From: an uncultured bacterium
GTDB taxonomy: Bacteria > Chlamydiota > Chlamydiia > Chlamydiales > SM23-39
Length of the DNA stretch: 64,000 nt
Direction of reading: 5' to 3'
Assembly: GCA_963716985.1 (NCBI GenBank)
Contig: OY970323.1
Coordinates: 928,001-992,000 of the forward strand
Part shown: one piece after another, positions 23,000 through 34,956 of the stretch
Layout: the number at the start of each line of letters is the position of its first letter
Numbering within the stretch: the first letter of the stretch is position 1
Notes under the pieces: model-generated
Seen by the model: the letters and a program-made list of their open reading frames with translations, nothing else
Databases searched by the model: none
What the model was told of the DNA's origin: nothing
Translations under genes and position numbers: made by a program

Positions 23000-24109
23000 C
23001 TAGGTCTCCGGGGATAAGTTTTTCCAACATTCCCTAGCGATCTCAAATGCTTCTTGTGTATGGATCAAAAGGACTTTAACTTTTGAATCAGAAGAAGAAA
23101 GTACGCGGTCTTCGGGAGCTTTTGATTGATGTTTAGAGAGATGAATCCCTAGAAAAGCAAACGAATCGCAGACTTGCTGTCTGATAGGAAAAGCATTTTC
23201 TCCAATTCCTCCAGTGAAAACAAGGGCATCTATGCCGCCAAGCGTTGCTATCATCGATCCAATCAGCGAGACTAGCCGATGAACATAGATATCGATCGCG
23301 AGTCTGGCTCGTGCATTGCCTTGGCTTGCTTTGTCTAAAATATCGCGCATATCGCTTGATATCCCAGAAATACCTAGCAACCCTGATTCTTCATAGAGTT
23401 CTTTTGAGAGTTCATCAGGAGTCTTGTCTTTAGATAGATAGAGAAGAATGCCGGGATCGACAGTGCCGGAGCGAGTATCCATCATTAAGCCTTCCAATGG
23501 AGTAAATCCCATCGTGGTATCGATGCTTTTCCCATTCTTAAGGGCGCAAAGAGAAGCTCCAGAGCCTAAATGGCAAATCACCAGTTTAGGGTGTTCTTGT
23601 TCTAAAAAATGCTTCGCCCTTCTCGAACAATATTGAAAACTGGTTCCATGGAACCCAAATCTCTGAATCCCTTCCTCAAACCACTTGTATGGACCAGGAT
23701 AAATAGCTGCATAGGCTGGCATCGTGTGATGAAAAGCCGTATCAAAAACAGCTATCTGCGGAATGTCTGGAAAGAGCTGCTCTAAAATCTCGATTCCTTC
23801 AAGGTCCGCCAAATTATGGAGGGGAGCGAGATCGGCAAGTTTGCGGATTTCCTTTTTTACTTCATTGTCAATCAAGACGCTTGTTTGGTACTTTTTGCCG
23901 CCATGAACAATCCGGTGGCCAATACAACGGATCTCTTTATCCGCAAGGAGGGATTTAAGCTCCTTTTTGATTGAGCCCTTTGTTTGAATGTTTTTCCATT
24001 CAATTTTGTCTTCCCAAATTGGATCAACCAGTTTATCTGGAAAGTTTGCAAAATCGTATATGCAGCATTTTATACTGCTCGATCCTCTATTTAAGACTAA
24101 TATTTTCAT
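23000..24109 (-). CDS. ackA: Acetate kinase
   Basis: [50 protein letters not shown]. Confidence 0.95.
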
Positions 24110-24161
24110 GTTTCACAAATATCACAAAATAAGTCAGTATGCGAGAAAAAAGGCTATTATC

Positions 24162-26522
24162 ATGTCAGCGCCCCTCTCTAAAGATCTCTTGCAAAAAATG
24201 AACGCCTATTGGCGTGCTGCGAACTATCTATCGGTCGGTCAGATTTACCTATACGACAATCCTCTGCTGAAGCGGGAACTAGTATTGTCTGATGTGAAGC
24301 CGTTGGTTGTAGGTCACTGGGGGACAACGCCGGGGCAGAACTTCATCTATGTGCATTTGAATCGGGTTATCAAGAAATACGATCTGAATATGTTCTATAT
24401 CGCCGGTCCTGGCCATGGCGGCCCGGCATTGGTGGGAAATACTTACCTCGAAGGTTCTTATACTGAGATTTATCCGGACATAAGCCAAGACGAAGATGGA
24501 ATGAAAAAGCTGTTCACGCAATTTTCGTTTCCTGGGGGAATTTCAAGTCACGTTGCTCCAACGACTCCAGGTTCAATCCACGAAGGGGGCGAGTTGGGGT
24601 ATTCTCTTAGTCATGCTTTCGGAGCTGTGTTCGACAATCCTGATCTTGTCGTGGCTTGCGTAATTGGCGACGGCGAAGCAGAAACTGGCCCCTTGGCAAC
24701 TGCATGGCAGTCCAATAAATTTCTTGACCCAATTACCGATGGAGCTGTGCTGCCCATCCTGCACCTCAATGGTTTCAAGATCAGCAATCCAACTGTCCTG
24801 TCCCGCATTGAACATGAGGAACTTGAGAAATTTTTCCAAGGCTGTGGTTGGACGCCTTATTTTGTGGAAGGGGATGATCCAGAGATAATGCATCAACTCA
24901 TGGCAGAAATTTTAGACAAGGCCGTTGAAGAGATTCGACAAATCCAAAGAAACGCGCGCGCGAACAATGACACCACTCGGCGTCGTTGGCCGATGATTGT
25001 CCTGAGGTCGCCTAAAGGTTGGACAGGGCCAAAATTTGTCGATGGTCTGAAAATTGAGGGGACATTTAGAGCACATCAAGTACCTCTTTTGGTAAATCCC
25101 GAGCATCCTGAGCATGTTCAACTGCTGGAAACCTGGATGAAAAGCTACAAGGCAGAAGAACTATTCGATGAGAATGGGAGACTTATTCCAGAATTGGCTG
25201 AGCTAGCGCCGAAGGGTAATCAACGGATGGGCGCTAATCCTCACGCTAATGGCGGTATTTTATTACGCGATTTGCGAATGCCAGACTTTCACGATCACGC
25301 GGTGAATGTGCCGTCCCCTGGCGCTGTAAATGCCGAAGACACTCTAGTTCTGGGCAATTTCCTTCGCGACGTGGCCAAGCTGAATCAGGATCAACGCAAT
25401 TTCCGCGTTTTCGGACCTGATGAGACTCTTTCGAATCTCTTGGGAGCAGTCTTTGAGGTCACCAATCGTCAGTGGGATGCTCGGGAAGTAAAAAATGATG
25501 AGTTCCTTGCTCCACAAGGACAAGTGCTTGATTCGATGCTGAGTGAGCACCAGTGCGAGGGGTGGTTGGAAGGCTATTTGCTAACAGGGCGCCACGGGCT
25601 GTTCAACAGCTATGAGGCGTTCATTCGGATCGTCGATTCGATGTTCAGCCAGCATGCCAAGTGGCTAAAAGTATGCTTAGAACTTCCTTGGCGTCGGAAG
25701 ATCTCATCGCTGAACTACCTGCTCGCCTCTCATGTCTGGCAGCAGGATCACAACGGTTTCACGCATCAGGATCCAGGCTTTCTTGACCATGTGATCAATA
25801 AGAAGGCCACGATTGTGCGCGTTTACTTACCGCCCGATGCCAACTGCCTACTATCAGTCTTTGATCATTGCTTGCGCAGTCGAAATTATGTCAATGTGGT
25901 GGTGGCTGGAAAACACCCACTCCCTCAATGGCTGAACATGGACGCTGCGGTGATCCATTGCACAGAGGGAATTGGGATCTGGCAATGGGCTAGTAACGAC
26001 CAGAATGATGAGCCTGACGTAGTGATGGGCTGCTGCGGAGATACTCCAACGCTCGAGGTTTTAGCTGCTGTTTCAATCCTTCGAGAACATCTGCCCGATC
26101 TGAAAATCAGGGTAGTCAATGTTGTCGATCTGATGAAACTACAGCCTCAAAGCGAGCATCCGCATGGACTTTCCGACAAAGATTACGATTCGCTTTTCAC
26201 AAAAGATAAGCACATCATCTTTAATTTCCATGGATACCCATGGCTGATCCATCGACTAACTTATCGTCGAAACAACCGCAATCTCCATGTTAGAGGCTAT
26301 AAAGAAGAAGGTACAATCACGACTCCGTTTGATTTGAGAGTGCAAAATGATATCGATCGGTTCCACCTGGTGCAAGACGTGGTTGATCGCTTACCACATT
26401 TAGGCGGCAAGGGATCCTATCTAAAGCAGATGATGCAAGATAAGCTGATCGAGCATAAGCACTACGTAGACAAGCACGGTCAAGATATGCCCGAAATCCG
26501 GAACTGGAAATGGGGTCAATAA
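24162..26522 (+). CDS. xfp: Xylulose-5-P/fructose-6-P phosphoketolase
   Basis: [54 protein letters not shown]. Likely start is ATG 24162. Confidence 0.96.
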
Positions 26523-26526
26523 AGAT

Positions 26527-27645
26527 ATGAAAGACAATCCCTTAAAGAAAGTGGGAGTTCTCGGTCAGTCAATCTGGCTCGACTATATCAGACGAGATCT
26601 CCTCGTCAGTGGAGAACTCAAACGTATGATTAAGGAGGACGGACTGCGGGGGATGACCTCGAATCCTTCCATCTTTGAGAAGGCTATTGCTGACAGCCAT
26701 GATTACGATAAGGATATTCAAGTTATGGTACGTGAGGGAAAAGACGTAAAGGCCATCTATGAATCTATCAGTCAGCAAGACGTACGAAGCGCCGCTGATC
26801 AGTTCCGTCCTTTGTATAACGAGACTGAAGGAAAAGATGGATATGTAAGTCTAGAGGTCAATCCTCACCTAGCGCACGACACTAAAGGCACAATCGAAGA
26901 GGCGAGGAAGTTATGGGCTGCGCTGAACAGGCCCAACGTCTTAATCAAGGTACCAGCGACTAAAGAAGGGCTGCCTGTCATCCAGCAACTCATCAGCGAA
27001 GGAATCAACGTCAATGTTACGTTGCTTTTTGGGATCCCTCGCTATCGTCAAGTTGTGGAAGCTTATCTTAAAGGCATCGAAGCGCGCGCGAACCAAGAAA
27101 AACCTGTAAAGATGGTGGCCTCTGTGGCTAGCTTCTTTTTGAGTCGCATCGATGTGTTGGTCGATCCCATGCTCGAAAAATTCATCGTTAAAGGTGGCAA
27201 AGATGCAGAATTAGCAAAAATGCTACATGGACAGATTGCTATCGCCAGTGCGAAGGCGGCCTATCAAATCTACAAGGAACTATTCGATAGTGTTCGGTTT
27301 AAGAAATTAGCTGATCAGGGAGCCTTTACTCAGAGGCTTCTCTGGGCTAGCACCAGCACGAAGAATCCGAAGTATAGCGATGTGTTATACATCGACTCCC
27401 TGATCGGAAAGGACACCATAAACACTATTCCGCTCGAAACTCTCGATGCGTATCGCGACCATGGCAATCCAAAAGATCGTATCGAACAAGAGGTTGTGAA
27501 GGCTCAATGGATGTTAGATCAATTGCCAAACTTAAGTATCAGCATCGATCATTTAACACAGCAGCTTGAAAACGAAGGAGTTGAAAAGTTTAGCATTTCC
27601 TTTGATAAACTGATGAAAGCCTTGGAAAAAGCGGTGCAAAAGTGA
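26527..27645 (+). CDS. tal: Transaldolase
   Basis: [39 protein letters not shown]. Confidence 0.95.
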
Positions 27646-30320
27646 AAACTATTCAAGAGCTTATAAACACTGCTACGGTCCTGGTTGGTTGCGATAAAGG
27701 CTTATTAGCGATCGATGAAAGTAACCCAACCTGTAACAAACGATTTGCCAAATTAGGAATTCCCCAAACCGAAGAAACTCGAAGATCCTACCGGGAATTG
27801 ATTGTAACTACACCCGGTTTAGGTGAGTTTATCAGCGGCGTCATTCTTTACGATGAGACGATCCGCCAGTCCACGAAAAATGGGACTCCTTTTATTCAAG
27901 TTATTACCGATGCAGGGATCATTCCTGGCATCAAAGTCGATACCGGTGCAAAGGAAATGGCAGATTTCCCTGGAGAAAAGATCACTGAAGGTCTGGACGG
28001 ATTGCGCGAACGTCTGGCTGAATACTCTGAAATGGGCGCCCGTTTTTGCAAGTGGCGCGCAGTGTTTGCTGTGAGCGATTTGCTTCCAAGCAAGGGATGC
28101 ATCGAGGCAAATGCGCTAGGCTTAGCTCGCTATGCCGCATTATGCCAGGAAGCTGGCCTGGTTCCGGTCGTTGAGCCTGAAGTGCTCATGGAAGGCGAGC
28201 ATACCTTAGAACGCTGCTGCGAGGTAACGGAGGATGTTCTGCGAACAGTTTTCAATCAACTTTATACTCAAGGAGTAATGCTGGAAGGGATGCTTTTGAA
28301 GCCCAATATGGTGCTTCCTGGATTGAGCTGTCCAAAACAAGAAACTATTGACGAGGTAGCTGATGCCACGGTGAGATGCCTATTGCGCACTGTCCCAGCG
28401 GCCGTTCCTGGGATTATGTTCCTATCGGGCGGTCAATCCGGTGAACTGGCCTCAGCTCGCCTGAATGCCATGAATATCAGATTCAAGTCAAAACTTCCTT
28501 GGGCGTTGGGGTTTTCATTTGCTCGAGCTATTCAACAGCCAGCTTTGGAGATTTGGCAAGGCAAGGAAGTAAACGTACCTGCAGCACAAAAGGCTTTGTA
28601 CCATCGAGCCAGATGCAACCAGGCTGCACGCCGTGGCGATTATAATGCCATGCTGGAAAAAGATAGAGCCATACCAACAAATAAAGTGCCACTCACAAAA
28701 CTCGCTGCATGGAATGCTCTCAAATCCCATTACCCAAAAGTTCGAGAATTGCATCTTAGGGAACTTTTCGCAAATGATCCAAAGCGCGCAAAACACATGA
28801 CAGCTGAAGCAGTTGGCATCTATTTTGACTATTCGAAGCATCGCATTACTGACGAGACACTTAAGCTCCTTCTGAAATTGGCGGAGGAATCTGGGTTGCG
28901 TTCTCGCATTGATTCTATGTTTAGGGGTGACAAAATTAACGTCACGGAGAAGAGAGCCGTCCTGCACGTGGCGCTGCGTGCCCCAAAAGGGCAATCTATT
29001 GTCCTAGACGGTGAAGACGTCGTACCTCAAGTCCACGCAGTTCTCGAAAAGATGGCCCATTTTTCCAATCGAATTCGGAGCGGGGAATGGAGAGGTCACA
29101 CAGGCAAGCCCATCCGCAATGTCATCAATATCGGCATTGGTGGATCTGATCTAGGTCCTGTGATGGCGTATGAGGCATTACGTCATTATAGCCAGAGGAA
29201 CTTAACCTTCCGTTTCATCTCTAATATCGATGGCACAGACTTCGCTGAGGCCACCCGCGACCTCGATGCTGGAGAGACTCTATTTATTATCTCGTCGAAG
29301 ACCTTTACGACATTAGAGACGATGACGAATGCTCACACAGCCCGTGAATGGGTTCTCAAGACTTTGAAACACGCTTCTGCTGTGGCTAAGCATTTTGTCG
29401 CTGTCTCGACTAACGCGGAGGAAGTGGCTAAATTTGGTATCGATACTGCAAATATGTTTGTATTTTGGGACTGGGTTGGTGGCAGGTATTCAATGGATTC
29501 AGCGATTGGTCTTTCAACAATGATCGCTATCGGCCCGGACAATTTTCGTTCCATGCTCGACGGATTCCATCAGATGGATGAACATTTTCGCACGGCCCCT
29601 TTCGAGTGCAATTTACCAGTGCTTATGGGATTGCTTGCTCTCTGGTATAACAACTTCTTTGATACACAGACTATAGCAGTTCTTCCGTATGAACAGTACT
29701 TGAAGCGTTTCCCCGCTTATCTCCAGCAGTTGACGATGGAAAGCAATGGCAAGCATGTTACGCTTGATGGGACTAAGATCCCTTACCAAACCGGACCAAT
29801 TTTCTGGGGTGAACCAGGAACCAATGGTCAGCATTCCTTCTATCAACTGATTCATCAAGGGACCAAGCTCATCCCTTGCGACTTCATTGCGTTTGAGTCT
29901 CCATTAAATCCTATTGGTCGTCACCATGATTTACTCTTGGCCAACGTCTTTGCTCAGGCAGAGGCCCTGGCTTTTGGAAAAACGGCACAGGAGCTACAAG
30001 CAGAAAACATCCCGGAGTGGCTAATCCCACATCGAACTTTCGAGGGCAACCGTCCTTCCAGTATGATCTTCCTGGAACAGCTAACCCCCCAGGCATTGGG
30101 AAAACTGGTTGCTCTATATGAACACAGTGTTTTCACTCAAGGCGCTATATGGGAAATTGATTCATTCGACCAGTGGGGGGTTGAACTGGGAAAAGCACTT
30201 GCTGAGCGGATCATCCCTGAACTTGAAAGAGGGAACAAATCTCAACTCAAGCATGATAGTTCAACTAACAACTTAATCCAGCGCTATACGAGATCGAAGG
30301 AGCAATTGCATGAGCGATAA
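27642..30320 (+). CDS. Fusion of class I fructose-bisphosphate aldolase and glucose-6-phosphate isomerase
   Basis: aa ~1-340: [38 protein letters not shown]. aa ~345-892: [49 protein letters not shown]. Confidence 0.92.
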
Positions 30321-31812: not shown

Positions 31813-34800
31813 ATGGAACCTGATGCCGATAACTCCAAAGCTCCAGAATCGAAGGTTCCGGCTAGAGCTTCGTCCAAAACTCCTGCAACAAAGTCAGGAT
31901 CGCAGCCTGATGCGAAGGAAGATCTAAAGTCCTTGTCTTTGGCTGAAGTGGGAAAAAAATTGGGATTCTCGCCGGAAGGACTCACAGAGGCTGAGGCGGC
32001 GAAGCGATTGACCCAATATGGTCCTAACGAGCTTGAAGAAAAGAAATCTCATCCGCTTTTAAAATTTCTCTCCTATTTTTGGGGTCCTATTCCATGGATG
32101 ATCGAGATAGCGGTGATTCTATCTGGGGTAGTTCGTCACTGGCCCGATTTTTTCATTATCCTCCTTTTGCTTTTTTCTAACGCCATAGTCGGATTCTGGG
32201 AGGAGCGTCAAGCAGCCAACGAGATTGCCGCCTTGAAGGCTAAGCTGGCGGTCAAGGCTCGGGTGATACGAGACGGGAAATGGATCAATCCAGCGGCGCG
32301 CGAGTTGGTTCCAGGCGACGTCATTCGATTGCGCCAGGGCGATATAGTGCCTGCGGATGCGCGGCTTTTGGATGGCGATCCGGTAGAGGTGGATCAATCT
32401 GCGCTGACAGGAGAGTCGCTGCCTGTAACGTGTAAAAGTGGCGGGGCCGTGTTCTCGGGATCGATTGTCCGCCAGGGCGAAATCGGTGCACTCGTCTACG
32501 GCACCGGTATGAACACCTACTTCGGTAAGACAGCACAATTGGTGCAGGAAGCACACACCGTCAGCCATTTTCAAAAGGCTGTTTTAAAAATCGGCAATTA
32601 TCTGATCATCTTAGCCGGCGTTTTGGTTGCTGGAATCATAACTGTTGCAATCTTTCGGGGAGATCCGATCCTCACCACGCTGCAATTCGCTTTGGTGCTG
32701 ACCGTGGCCTCTATCCCGGTAGCGATGCCGACAGTATTGTCGGTAACGATGGCAGTCGGCGCGCGCCTGCTCGCAAGAAAGCAAGCGATTGTGAGCCGCT
32801 TAGTCGCCATCGAGGAGTTAGCAGGAGTGGACATATTGTGCGCGGACAAGACCGGCACTCTGACTCAAAACAAGTTGACGCTGGGCGATCCATTCAGCGT
32901 GAATAATATCCCAAAGGAACAAGTCATCCTCAATGGCGCGTTAGCATCGCGTGCAGACAATAACGATACGATTGATTTGGCCGTTCTCGGCGGTCTGAAA
33001 AACAAAGATGCGCTGAAAGGGTACCAGATGGGCCATTTCCAACCATTCGATGCAGTGCATAAACGGACTGAAGCTACGATCAAGGGATCAGAAGGTAAAG
33101 AGTTCAAGGTGACGAAAGGCGCGCCGCAAGTGATTTTGGCATTATCAGCCAATCTAACCCAAGTGAAGGATGCTGTTGAAAAAGCAGTTAACGAATTTGC
33201 TGCGCGCGGATTTCGATCGCTCGGCGTTGCTCGGGACGATGGAAGCGGGTGGCAATTTCTCGGGGTCCTACCCCTGTTTGATCCACCGCGGGAAGATGCT
33301 AAAGCGACGATTGCGACCGCAACTCAAATGGGCGTGAAAGTTAAGATGGTCACGGGTGATCAAATGGCCATCGCGAAGGAAACTGCAAAAAAATTAGGGA
33401 TGGGCACAAACATCCTCGATGCTACGGGTCTTGGCGATGTAAAGAAGCAAGAGACCACCGAGATGGCCGAGTCTATCGAGAAGTGTGATGGTTTTGCCCA
33501 GGTATTCCCTGCACACAAGTTCCATATTGTGGATGTGTTGCAAAAACGAGGCCATCTTGTCGGCATGACTGGCGACGGGGTAAATGACGCCCCTGCGCTG
33601 AAAAAAGCCGACTGCGGCATCGCCGTTTCAAGCGCGACAGATGCGGCGCGCGCGGCAGCAGCCATTGTGCTGTTAACGCCCGGCCTATCGGTGATTATCG
33701 ATGCGATCAAAGAAAGTCGGAAAATTTTCCAGCGGATGAACAGTTACGCGATCTACCGCATCGCCGAGACGCTCCGCGTACTATTTTTCATGACACTGGC
33801 CATCCTGGTGTTTAACTTCTATCCAGTGACGGCAGTGATGATTGTGATGCTGGCGCTTCTGAACGATGGCGCCATCCTATCCATTGCTTATGACAATGTT
33901 CATTATAAGGATCAGCCTGAAGCCTGGAACATGCGCATGGTCTTAGGAGTAGCTACAGCTCTGGGCTTGATCGGGGTCGTGGCCGCTTTTGGCCTATTTT
34001 ATCTCGGTGAGAGAGTCTTTCATCTCGACCGCCCACATATCCAGACGCTGATGTATTTGAAGTTGTCTGTGGCTGGACACCTGACGATTTTCCTGACCCG
34101 TACGCGCGGTCCATTCTGGACCATCCGCCCTGCGCGGATTTTATGGGGAGCAGTACTGGGTACGCAAATGGTGGCCACTTTGATTGCGGTTTTCGGGTTC
34201 CTTATGACCCCTCTCGGCTGGAAATGGGCAGGTTTTGTTTGGGTCTATGCGCTTGCCTGGTTCCTCGTAAATGACCAAGTCAAATGGCTTGCCTACCGGA
34301 TTTTCGATCCGGTTAAGAAACCTAAGACTGATGCCAAGGCTGGATCTCAGCCTGTGAGCAAGCCAGAGCCAAAACCAGATACTAAACTTAAGAACAAAGA
34401 AGGGGCTATGCCTGAAGACAATGCCAAACCAAAGCCTGACGATAAAGCAAAGTCTAAACCAGAAGGTGCTGCCGAACCAAAACCTGGCGACGCTAAAGGT
34501 GCTAAACCAGAAGGTGCCGCTGAGCCTGCACCAGGTGCCAAAGCCGAGCCAAAACCTGACGACGCTAAAGGTGCCAAACCAGAAGGTGCTGCTGACCTTA
34601 AGCCAAGCGCTAAAGCGGAACCAAAACCAGACGATGCCAAGCCTAAGCCTGAAGAGGTCGGACACTCGGATACGACATCGGGGCAAAATTTCATCCATGT
34701 GCATATGGATAAGGAGGCAGTCGATGTCTACATTGCCGGTCCTGGTCACAGCGGGCCCGGTATCCCTGAACACAAGGATGAGTCAAAGCCAGAAGGCAAA

Positions 34801-34956
34801 ACAGAACCAAAATCTGAAAACACACCTTCTGATTTGACAGAGCAGATCAAGAAACGCGCCCAAGAGCTATACGAGAAACGGGGAAGGCAAGAGGGTCATG
34901 CAGATGAGGACTGGAGCCAAGCAGAGAAGGAAATTCGGAAAGAAAAAAACAAATGA
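31813..34956 (+). CDS. P-type H+-exporting ATPase (P3A) with repeat tail and DUF2934-like C-terminus
   Basis: WGPIPWMIE, DQSALTGES, IPVAMPTV, DKTGT, KGAPQ, TGDGVNDAPALK, LND; tail QIKKRAQELYE.RG...G...DW..AE.EI. Confidence 0.93.
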   Translation: MEPDADNSKAPESKVPARASSKTPATKSGSQPDAKEDLKSLSLAEVGKKLGFSPEGLTEAEAAKRLTQYGPNELEEKKSHPLLKFLSYFWGPIPWMIEIAVILSGVVRHWPDFFIILLLLFSNAIVGFWEERQAANEIAALKAKLAVKARVIRDGKWINPAARELVPGDVIRLRQGDIVPADARLLDGDPVEVDQSALTGESLPVTCKSGGAVFSGSIVRQGEIGALVYGTGMNTYFGKTAQLVQEAHTVSHFQKAVLKIGNYLIILAGVLVAGIITVAIFRGDPILTTLQFALVLTVASIPVAMPTVLSVTMAVGARLLARKQAIVSRLVAIEELAGVDILCADKTGTLTQNKLTLGDPFSVNNIPKEQVILNGALASRADNNDTIDLAVLGGLKNKDALKGYQMGHFQPFDAVHKRTEATIKGSEGKEFKVTKGAPQVILALSANLTQVKDAVEKAVNEFAARGFRSLGVARDDGSGWQFLGVLPLFDPPREDAKATIATATQMGVKVKMVTGDQMAIAKETAKKLGMGTNILDATGLGDVKKQETTEMAESIEKCDGFAQVFPAHKFHIVDVLQKRGHLVGMTGDGVNDAPALKKADCGIAVSSATDAARAAAAIVLLTPGLSVIIDAIKESRKIFQRMNSYAIYRIAETLRVLFFMTLAILVFNFYPVTAVMIVMLALLNDGAILSIAYDNVHYKDQPEAWNMRMVLGVATALGLIGVVAAFGLFYLGERVFHLDRPHIQTLMYLKLSVAGHLTIFLTRTRGPFWTIRPARILWGAVLGTQMVATLIAVFGFLMTPLGWKWAGFVWVYALAWFLVNDQVKWLAYRIFDPVKKPKTDAKAGSQPVSKPEPKPDTKLKNKEGAMPEDNAKPKPDDKAKSKPEGAAEPKPGDAKGAKPEGAAEPAPGAKAEPKPDDAKGAKPEGAADLKPSAKAEPKPDDAKPKPEEVGHSDTTSGQNFIHVHMDKEAVDVYIAGPGHSGPGIPEHKDESKPEGKTEPKSENTPSDLTEQIKKRAQELYEKRGRQEGHADEDWSQAEKEIRKEKNK
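34330..34650 (+). repeat. Degenerate coding tandem repeats (AKPEGAAEPKPDD)
   Basis: Recurrent AAACCAGAAGGTGC and GACGCTAAAGGTGC units. Confidence 0.8.

Follow-up and report, generated by a model that had tools for sequence, protein, structure and literature searches.

In plants and fungi, P3A-type plasma-membrane proton pumps are autoinhibited by their tails, which turns them into pH-stats, whereas prokaryotic P3A pumps are said to lack extended termini, both according to the accessible part of PMC10654040. Here we describe a bacterial P3A-type H+-ATPase with a long C-terminal tail that contains a piece of another enzyme, the phosphoketolase Xfp, which is encoded 10 kb upstream. The two genes lie in a stretch of 64,000 nucleotides (hereafter the window) from an uncultured bacterium of the Chlamydiota (GTDB lineage SM23-39; assembly GCA_963716985.1, contig OY970323.1, positions 928,001 to 992,000). 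An earlier note on this DNA, which was based on the sequence alone, had proposed that a phosphoketolase-derived peptide is embedded in the pump tail, and had taken the regulation of P3A pumps through their tails as established. The latter view applies to plants and fungi but is at odds with what the accessible part of PMC10654040 says about prokaryotes.

Origin of the tail fragment

The core of the fragment, VGHSDTTSGQNFIHVHMDKEAVDVYIAGPGHSGP, corresponds to residues 949-982 of the pump and to positions 34657-34758 of the window. When a tail piece of 61 amino acids was compared with Xfp by BLASTP, 24 of 45 positions were identical, with one five-residue gap region and a pairwise E-value of 8e-12. 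This alignment begins at a common KP, two to four residues before the start given in the earlier note, and the copied piece appears to extend from about K945 to P982, or about 38 codons (Table 1). At the DNA level, 69 of 102 aligned bases were identical between the fragment and the xfp of the same genome over 34 codons, and five codons were lost in frame; the mean column identity in a wider DNA alignment was 76%. The claim that the tail segment aligns with the neighbouring Xfp was thus confirmed, as was the start of the Xfp segment at position 24309. The peptide had been placed at 34651-34761, which is correct as to its location in the tail, while the two ends were off by 6 and 3 bases, respectively.

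Profile searches gave a similar picture. The tail matched the Pfam family XFP_N at profile positions 43-87 of 364 with 15-18.8 bits (E-values of 0.011 to 0.0008), which is below the family cut-off of 23.7 bits. XFP_N matched three of the four fragment-bearing tails that were compared, namely those of the window, of the metagenomic loci L107 and L108, and of the protein P0123, with a best E-value of 8.7e-5. Apart from this weak match and a DUF2934 domain, no family was found in a Pfam search of the tail. The genome from which the window was taken (2.07 Mb, one contig) contains a single xfp gene and a single copy of the fragment. The product of this xfp gene matched XFP_N, XFP and XFP_C with E-values of 1e-185 to 1e-85, and the closest solved structure is 8io8.

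In the donor enzyme, the segment forms a strand-helix-strand unit of the thiamine diphosphate (ThDP)-binding domain, including two active-site His motifs. The active-site residues of phosphoketolase include His64 and His97 (accessible part of PMC10547157). Judged by the alignment offset to 3ai7 and this residue list, H951 and H979 of the pump are the respective equivalents. The view of the earlier note that the tail peptide was captured from the xfp gene nearby is supported. The same note stated that both His motifs are kept. This is true for the window, L107 and P0123, while in L108 the first motif is changed and the equivalent of His64 is replaced; the equivalent of His97 is kept in all four tails. 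With about 40 residues, and without the ThDP site or the rest of the enzyme, the fragment cannot act as an enzyme.

Authenticity of the arrangement

The oddity of the arrangement is the sole point in favour of an artefact of assembly or annotation, such as contigs joined in error or a tail that does not belong to the pump. We give this explanation practically no credence, because the same arrangement is found in the independent assemblies L107 and L108, the open reading frame (ORF) is unbroken, and fusions between pumps and DUF2934 are common. Moreover, 31-letter words of the tail were present in 20 sequencing runs from 17 studies, comprising peat, soil, moss and permafrost metagenomes, and four of these runs (X1-X4) were examined as contigs. 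Contigs from X2, X3 and X4 span the core of the fragment without differences, and a contig from X1 spans positions 34661-34814 with one difference. Both junctions are bridged by contigs from X3 (34462-34763) and X4 (34533-34873, with one difference at 34789). Since contigs from other runs cover the core and bridge the junctions, and L107 and L108 were assembled independently, an assembly chimera could be ruled out. Among the runs listed, no RNA dataset was present in the 20 that contain tail words.

The contigs also revealed that the long linker preceding the fragment (linker 1) varies in length in natural populations. In one X4 contig, 58 bases at positions 34463-34522 are replaced by 13 others, which makes the linker 15 codons shorter, and in L107 it is 16 residues shorter in the same repeat region. 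The fragment itself was unchanged in the X1-X4 contigs that span it.

Conservation of the fragment

Selection was assessed by Nei-Gojobori counts in three DNA sequences (window, L107 and L108) over the 34 codons of the fragment. Between the window and L108, the fragment showed a synonymous divergence of 16/22 (0.73) and a non-synonymous divergence of 17/80 (0.21; Fisher p-value of 1.3e-5), the corresponding values for the pump core being 0.71 and 0.11. The non-synonymous divergence was 0.20 in the DUF2934 domain, 51/140 (0.36) in the linkers flanking the fragment (p-value of 0.023 versus the fragment, with an uncertain linker alignment) and 0.40 in linker 2 alone. Within the motif GQNFIHVHM, none of 22.7 non-synonymous sites but 3 of 4.3 synonymous sites had changed. 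In the comparison of the window with its close relative L107, the fragment showed changes at 5/23 synonymous and 2/79 non-synonymous sites (p-value of 0.006). GQNFIHVHM and Y-x-AGP-x-H-x-G are invariant in the four tails.

As the synonymous divergence of the fragment equals that of the core, the fragment must be as old in this gene as the split between the lineages of the window and L108. The counts indicate that it has not drifted freely since that split, and that it is kept by purifying selection where it is present. This disfavours the option, left open in the earlier note, that the peptide is a neutral relic. In the search for homologues and the measurement of substitution rates that the note had suggested, the peptide turned out to be absent from most homologues, including the closest ones, but to be under purifying selection rather than in free decay in its bearers.

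Distribution of the fragment

Among genomes, the fragment was found only in that of the window. In a set of 41 genomes (that of the window and 40 relatives), all listed pump matches from the relatives stop by query residue 839. The most similar pump, that of genome G016, shares 93% identity over residues 302-839 and 91% over the core columns; in its tail, the last helix is followed by a short KPKT linker and then by DUF2934, without a long linker and without an Xfp piece. When 185,579 species genomes were scanned, 70 loci belonging to many phyla were retained, and the motif was absent from all 64 of these loci in which the ATPase ORF was readable. When 102 loci were searched by six-frame tblastn, a tail-type piece was present in L107 and L108 only, and the other significant matches were genuine xfp genes. 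Lastly, 163 of 401 genomes of the same order had a match, but among the matches listed only that of the window's own genome (E-value of 8e-38, 100% identity) was located in a pump; the others listed were 40-63% identical, which is the level of the xfp gene in the window. Six short-frame Xfp-like matches in genomes of this order were considered as further captures and rejected, as all were frameshifted or truncated ordinary xfp genes.

The locus of the G016 pump (L008, G016:C4:92144-96754) deserves a separate remark. From about residue 300 backwards, the pump gene gives way to unrelated sequence of very high GC content, and its 5' portion is located on another contig, so that the genome bin looks chimeric or misassembled at this place.

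Searches of metagenomic data yielded a few more bearers. In a collection of 5.8 billion proteins, one of the 120 tail relatives listed (P0004) contains the fragment, and it is also present in the shorter proteins P0123, P0124 and P0125. A metagenome scan identified L107 (the contig of P0125), L108 (the contig of P0004) and L109, which is a genuine Xfp that naturally reads NFIHVHM. A search of a representative library with the 108-residue tail gave 991 matches at E-values≤0.001, mostly DUF2934 proteins, and among the 150 matches listed it added two partial sequences with tail pieces, P0165 and P0131. P0165 is a metagenomic ORF of 73 amino acids in which the YIAGPGH block lacks A and H and DUF2934 lacks its DW-QAE core. 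P0131 is a metagenomic protein of 196 residues in which the N-terminus of AckA is joined directly to AGPGHSG, linker and DUF2934, that is, to the distal half of a bearer tail; this is either a genuine rearrangement inside the gene cluster or a chimera produced during assembly. Beyond the genome of the window, the fragment thus occurs in four or five metagenomic sequences and is rare.

A single capture

The same gap of five codons is common to all bearers, as are the derived residues S, D, H and M at the positions where W, G, Y and L are found in the Xfp of this clade. The common deletion and derived states imply one capture followed by early change, and they rule out independent captures in the lineages of the window and L108. 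The donor was the Xfp type of this clade itself (KPLVVGH..., identical in the window and in the loci L038 and L062). In L108, xfp is located directly upstream of the pump gene, and 22 of the 70 loci have an xfp gene in their 3-kb flank; donor and acceptor were therefore neighbours.

The pump tree does not follow the presence of the fragment. In a tree of pump cores, the window groups with G016, L038 and L062 (Shimodaira-Hasegawa-like approximate likelihood ratio test, SH-aLRT, 99), all three of which lack the piece, and L108 groups with verrucomicrobial sequences (SH-aLRT 97). A sister relationship between the window and L108 was rejected (approximately unbiased test, p-value of 0.007), while a clade of five members was not quite rejected (p-value of 0.063). 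P0123, a bearer with a diverged fragment, is nearest to L038 (88%) and then to the window (85%) in its core segment, as judged by BLAST. This patchy presence reflects either repeated loss or exchange of tails by recombination. A recent tail exchange as the cause of the similarity was ruled out, because the synonymous divergence of the fragment equals that of the core. The L108 cluster comprises ackA, xfp, the pump gene, a phosphorylase gene and genes for MFS, Band-7 and PGM proteins, with a similar GC content, and its proteins are 70-86% identical to those of the window, except for AckA (36%).

Possible role of the fragment in the pump tail

Of the 12 hydrophobic residues between positions 861 and 1005, 10 lie in or beside the Xfp piece, as do all five His residues of this stretch, which makes the fragment the sole hydrophobic, His-bearing island of an otherwise charged and floppy tail. 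For a selected, hydrophobic island with three His residues in a charged, disordered tail, a recognition or switch element appears to be the most economical reading. We therefore favour, at about even chances, the view that a piece of xfp was captured once, came under purifying selection and is now a short binding or switch element of the pump tail. In this scenario, a 5' stretch of some 38 codons of the neighbouring xfp was copied once into the disordered linker of the tail, likely through a template switch or filler-DNA repair between the side-by-side genes of the module. The piece changed rapidly at first (by the substitutions W to S, G to D, Y to H and L to M and the loss of five codons), and purifying selection has since maintained it in a small group of chlamydia-like bacteria living in peat. 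The data show the origin of the fragment, its single capture, the selection on it and its rarity, whereas its regulatory role and the pH switch are inferred. The three invariant His residues could titrate near the cytoplasmic pH and thereby alter how the tail is seated on the pump or on a partner. By analogy with the tail-controlled pH-stat pumps of plants and fungi, as far as the accessible part of PMC10654040 describes them, a pH-titratable tail element would make sense here.

A bolder version, which we consider rather unlikely, is that the pump has recruited the active-site piece of the neighbouring acid-producing enzyme as a working part of its tail, either as a His-based pH switch or as a binding handle for phosphoketolase. 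If true, acetate fermentation and proton export would be coupled physically or allosterically, and P3A tail regulation would have been invented independently for a third time, here out of enzyme scrap.

Several points weigh against a working element. The closest pumps, those of G016 (91% in the core), L038 (90%) and L062 (88%), have neither the fragment nor the long linker, and the pump can therefore do without the fragment. P0165 resembles a decayed tail and may be a pseudogene copy, and the first His motif, GHSD, has become DRSD in L108 (VDRSD). The selection signal is drawn from three DNA sequences and 34 codons only. In AlphaFold2 (AF2) models of both the tail alone and the full-length pump, the predicted local distance difference test score (pLDDT) of the fragment was below 50, and no docking was seen; in the model of the tail alone, just two weak strands of three residues, FIH and YIA, were formed. 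Such low values do not prove disorder in vivo, and the AF2 models neither support nor exclude docking. In addition, at the 21 sites where the xfp genes of the two lineages differ, each fragment leans towards the xfp of its own lineage (10:4 versus 6:10, Fisher p-value of 0.08), which is not significant but is compatible with some gene conversion.

Apart from the small number of sequences, these same observations would fit a tolerated passenger, for which the linker would need only length, charge and an open frame for DUF2934. The conservation would then stem from a weak, unspecific constraint, such as avoidance of aggregation or proteolysis, or from occasional gene conversion by xfp. This explanation seems unlikely to us, as it does not readily account for a ratio of non-synonymous to synonymous change that differs so clearly from neutrality, for a non-synonymous divergence as low as that of DUF2934 and below that of both flanking linkers, or for nine consecutive invariant residues despite three synonymous changes. 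Gene conversion would, moreover, have wiped out the common derived states and the common deletion. The selection signal is real, but the fragment is rare and dispensable, and any functional role for it is putative.

The invariant residues would also allow for a metal site, in which H-x-H-M and the third His bind Zn, Ni or Cu in the tail. H962, H964, M965 and H979 are indeed invariant in the four tails, and H-x-H arose through a Y-to-H change that is derived in comparison with the Xfp of this clade. On the other hand, the tail matched no metal-binding family in Pfam, and NFIHVHM is natural in some genuine Xfp proteins such as L109, so that the motif need not be an adaptation. We regard a metal site as very improbable.

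The xfp-pump gene pair

The fragment links two genes that are often found together. Pairs of neighbouring xfp and pump genes occur in many unrelated phyla (by record titles Verrucomicrobiota, Bacteroidota, Acidobacteriota, Chloroflexota, Actinomycetota, Chlamydiota and others; loci L037-L106), and their proteins are 70-91% identical to those of the window across these loci. Judged from these sequences, the pair looks like a horizontally spread module for acid fermentation and proton export in peat and soil bacteria.

The conservation of this pair across many phyla would suit the idea, raised in the earlier note, that the peptide is a docking mimic. The peptide, which stems from a region of Xfp close to the dimer interface and the active site, would bind Xfp and tether or modulate the enzyme at the pump, thereby coupling acid production to proton export. 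Solved phosphoketolases have ThDP at the dimer interface near the N-terminus (accessible part of PMC10365998), and two residues of this active site are present in the piece (accessible part of PMC10547157). However, the donor segment is a strand-helix-strand unit at the start of the N-terminal domain without an obvious surface epitope. In transketolase-like folds, the matching segment is partly buried in the domain core. Furthermore, the W, G, Y and L residues that are invariant in Xfp were replaced early, five helix residues were lost, and most pumps that adjoin xfp lack such a peptide. A prediction of the complex between Xfp (alignment of 7 rows) and tail residues 940-999 (alignment of 4 rows), run without controls, gave a score of 0.00 and has no bearing either way. 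Altogether, a docking mimic appears quite improbable.

In the window, the pair is part of a sugar-fermentation gene cluster with genes for an MFS transporter, glgC, ackA, xfp, transaldolase, an aldolase-PGI fusion, TIM, a CBS protein, the pump, a HAD hydrolase, a Band-7 protein, alpha-glucan phosphorylase and phosphoglucomutase. The fusion joins a class-I fructose-bisphosphate aldolase to phosphoglucose isomerase (PGI), and partial matches of about 540 residues with 83-85% identity, corresponding to a PGI-sized portion, were found in L042 and L059.

An ATP-sensing motif has been described for cyanobacterial phosphoketolase (accessible part of PMC10365998). In its C-terminal part, the Xfp in the window has a stretch with HVR that is close to this motif, with a spacer one residue shorter. 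Given this near-match, the enzyme may be inhibited by ATP.

The pump gene and its tail

The pump scored 1058.7 bits against the NCBIfam family TIGR01647, 'plasma-membrane proton-efflux P-type ATPase' (cut-off of 615.5 bits), and contains the Pfam domains E1-E2_ATPase, Cation_ATPase_N and Hydrolase. The phosphorylation motif DKTGT is visible in the translation (CADKTGTLT), as is an LLNDG motif. In P3A pumps, the proton-acceptor Asp of transmembrane segment 6 and the Arg of transmembrane segment 5 are D684 and R655 of AHA2, and LLNDG may contain the equivalent of Asp684. The stop codon of the pump gene overlaps the start of the next gene, which encodes the HAD hydrolase (34953).

In the AF2 model of the full-length pump, the last helix comprises residues 803-831, and the approximately 215 residues that follow form a C-terminal cytoplasmic extension. 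The pLDDT was below 50 for most of residues 834-1030 (834-938, 940-1018 and 1022-1030). Linker 1 consists largely of K (22%), A (19%) and P (19%), and Tandem Repeats Finder detected 2.3 copies of a 72-base repeat at positions 34471-34634. DUF2934 (PF11154) was identified in all four tails with 45.1-49.2 bits (cut-off of 22), and was modelled as two helices with a pLDDT of 80-88 when the tail was modelled alone.

Table 1. Features of the xfp-pump region of the window. Residue numbers refer to the respective proteins.
Feature	Position	Strand	Remarks
xfp (phosphoketolase), source of the fragment	24159..26522	+	Probable start at 24159 in ORF 23988-26522
Source segment in xfp (KPLVVGHWG...), with His64 and His97 equivalents	24297..24425	+	Alignment to fragment
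Fusion of class-I fructose-bisphosphate aldolase (residues 6-340) and phosphoglucose isomerase (396-879)	27642-30320		892-aa ORF
P3A-type H+-ATPase gene	31813..34956	+	1047 aa; tail of about 215 residues beyond last membrane helix
Linker 1, K/A/P/E/D-rich, low complexity, residues 832-944	34306..34644	+	Composition
Xfp-derived fragment K945-P982, core V949-P982	34645..34758	+	In-frame deletion of 5 codons versus xfp
Linker 2, short, E/P/K-rich, residues 983-1005	34759..34827	+	Composition
DUF2934 domain, residues 1008-1042, C-terminal helix-loop-helix	34834..34938	+	PF11154

Comparison with known systems

Bacterial pumps with a DUF2934 tail are common, and the length of their linkers is very variable. 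The tail of the L071 pump ends in a Cys/His-rich stretch (..CAYGQ..CDWCAQH..) instead of DUF2934, and innovation seems to have occurred repeatedly in the tails of this family. A literature search on DUF2934, judged by titles and abstracts of the papers listed, found nothing on pumps, and searches on phosphoketolase together with P-type ATPases or Chlamydiae, and on C-terminal extensions of bacterial P3A pumps, found nothing relevant as judged from the search listings. The long DUF2934 tails contradict the textbook view of prokaryotic P3A pumps as enzymes without regulatory termini, and the xfp-linked DUF2934 pumps, which many phyla of acidic peat and soil have in common at 70-90% identity, would allow the regulation of pumps in acid habitats to be tested.

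The closest relatives are the bacterial P3A pumps whose C-terminus consists of K/P/E/A-rich linkers and one or two DUF2934 domains, which belong to the same clade, have the same tail plan and are often encoded beside xfp. Their tails lack an Xfp-like piece, which is an addition seen in just a few sequences. The tail of the window's pump resembles the R-domains of plant AHA2 and fungal Pma1 in that a P3A proton pump is prolonged beyond its last membrane helix by a long cytoplasmic segment. The resemblance is in position only: no sequence relation was found, and the tail is bacterial and composed of a low-complexity linker, DUF2934 and a piece of a metabolic enzyme. Within XFP_N (PF09364; structures 8io8, 3ahc and 3ai7), the fragment is homologous to the region that includes the GH(W)G and GPGH motifs, but it covers only 45 of the 364 positions, stays below the family threshold, lacks the ThDP-binding part, has W, G, Y and L replaced and is five residues shorter.

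Chimeric genes can arise by templated insertion or capture of gene fragments, where a short stretch is copied in frame into another gene and then retained. The fragment described here is a clear natural example of the birth of a new protein element by this route, a catalytically useless piece of a neighbouring gene that entered a disordered tail and then came under selection. It differs from fragment capture in general in that the donor is a functionally linked neighbour, the acceptor a disordered regulatory tail and the copied part a segment of an active site.

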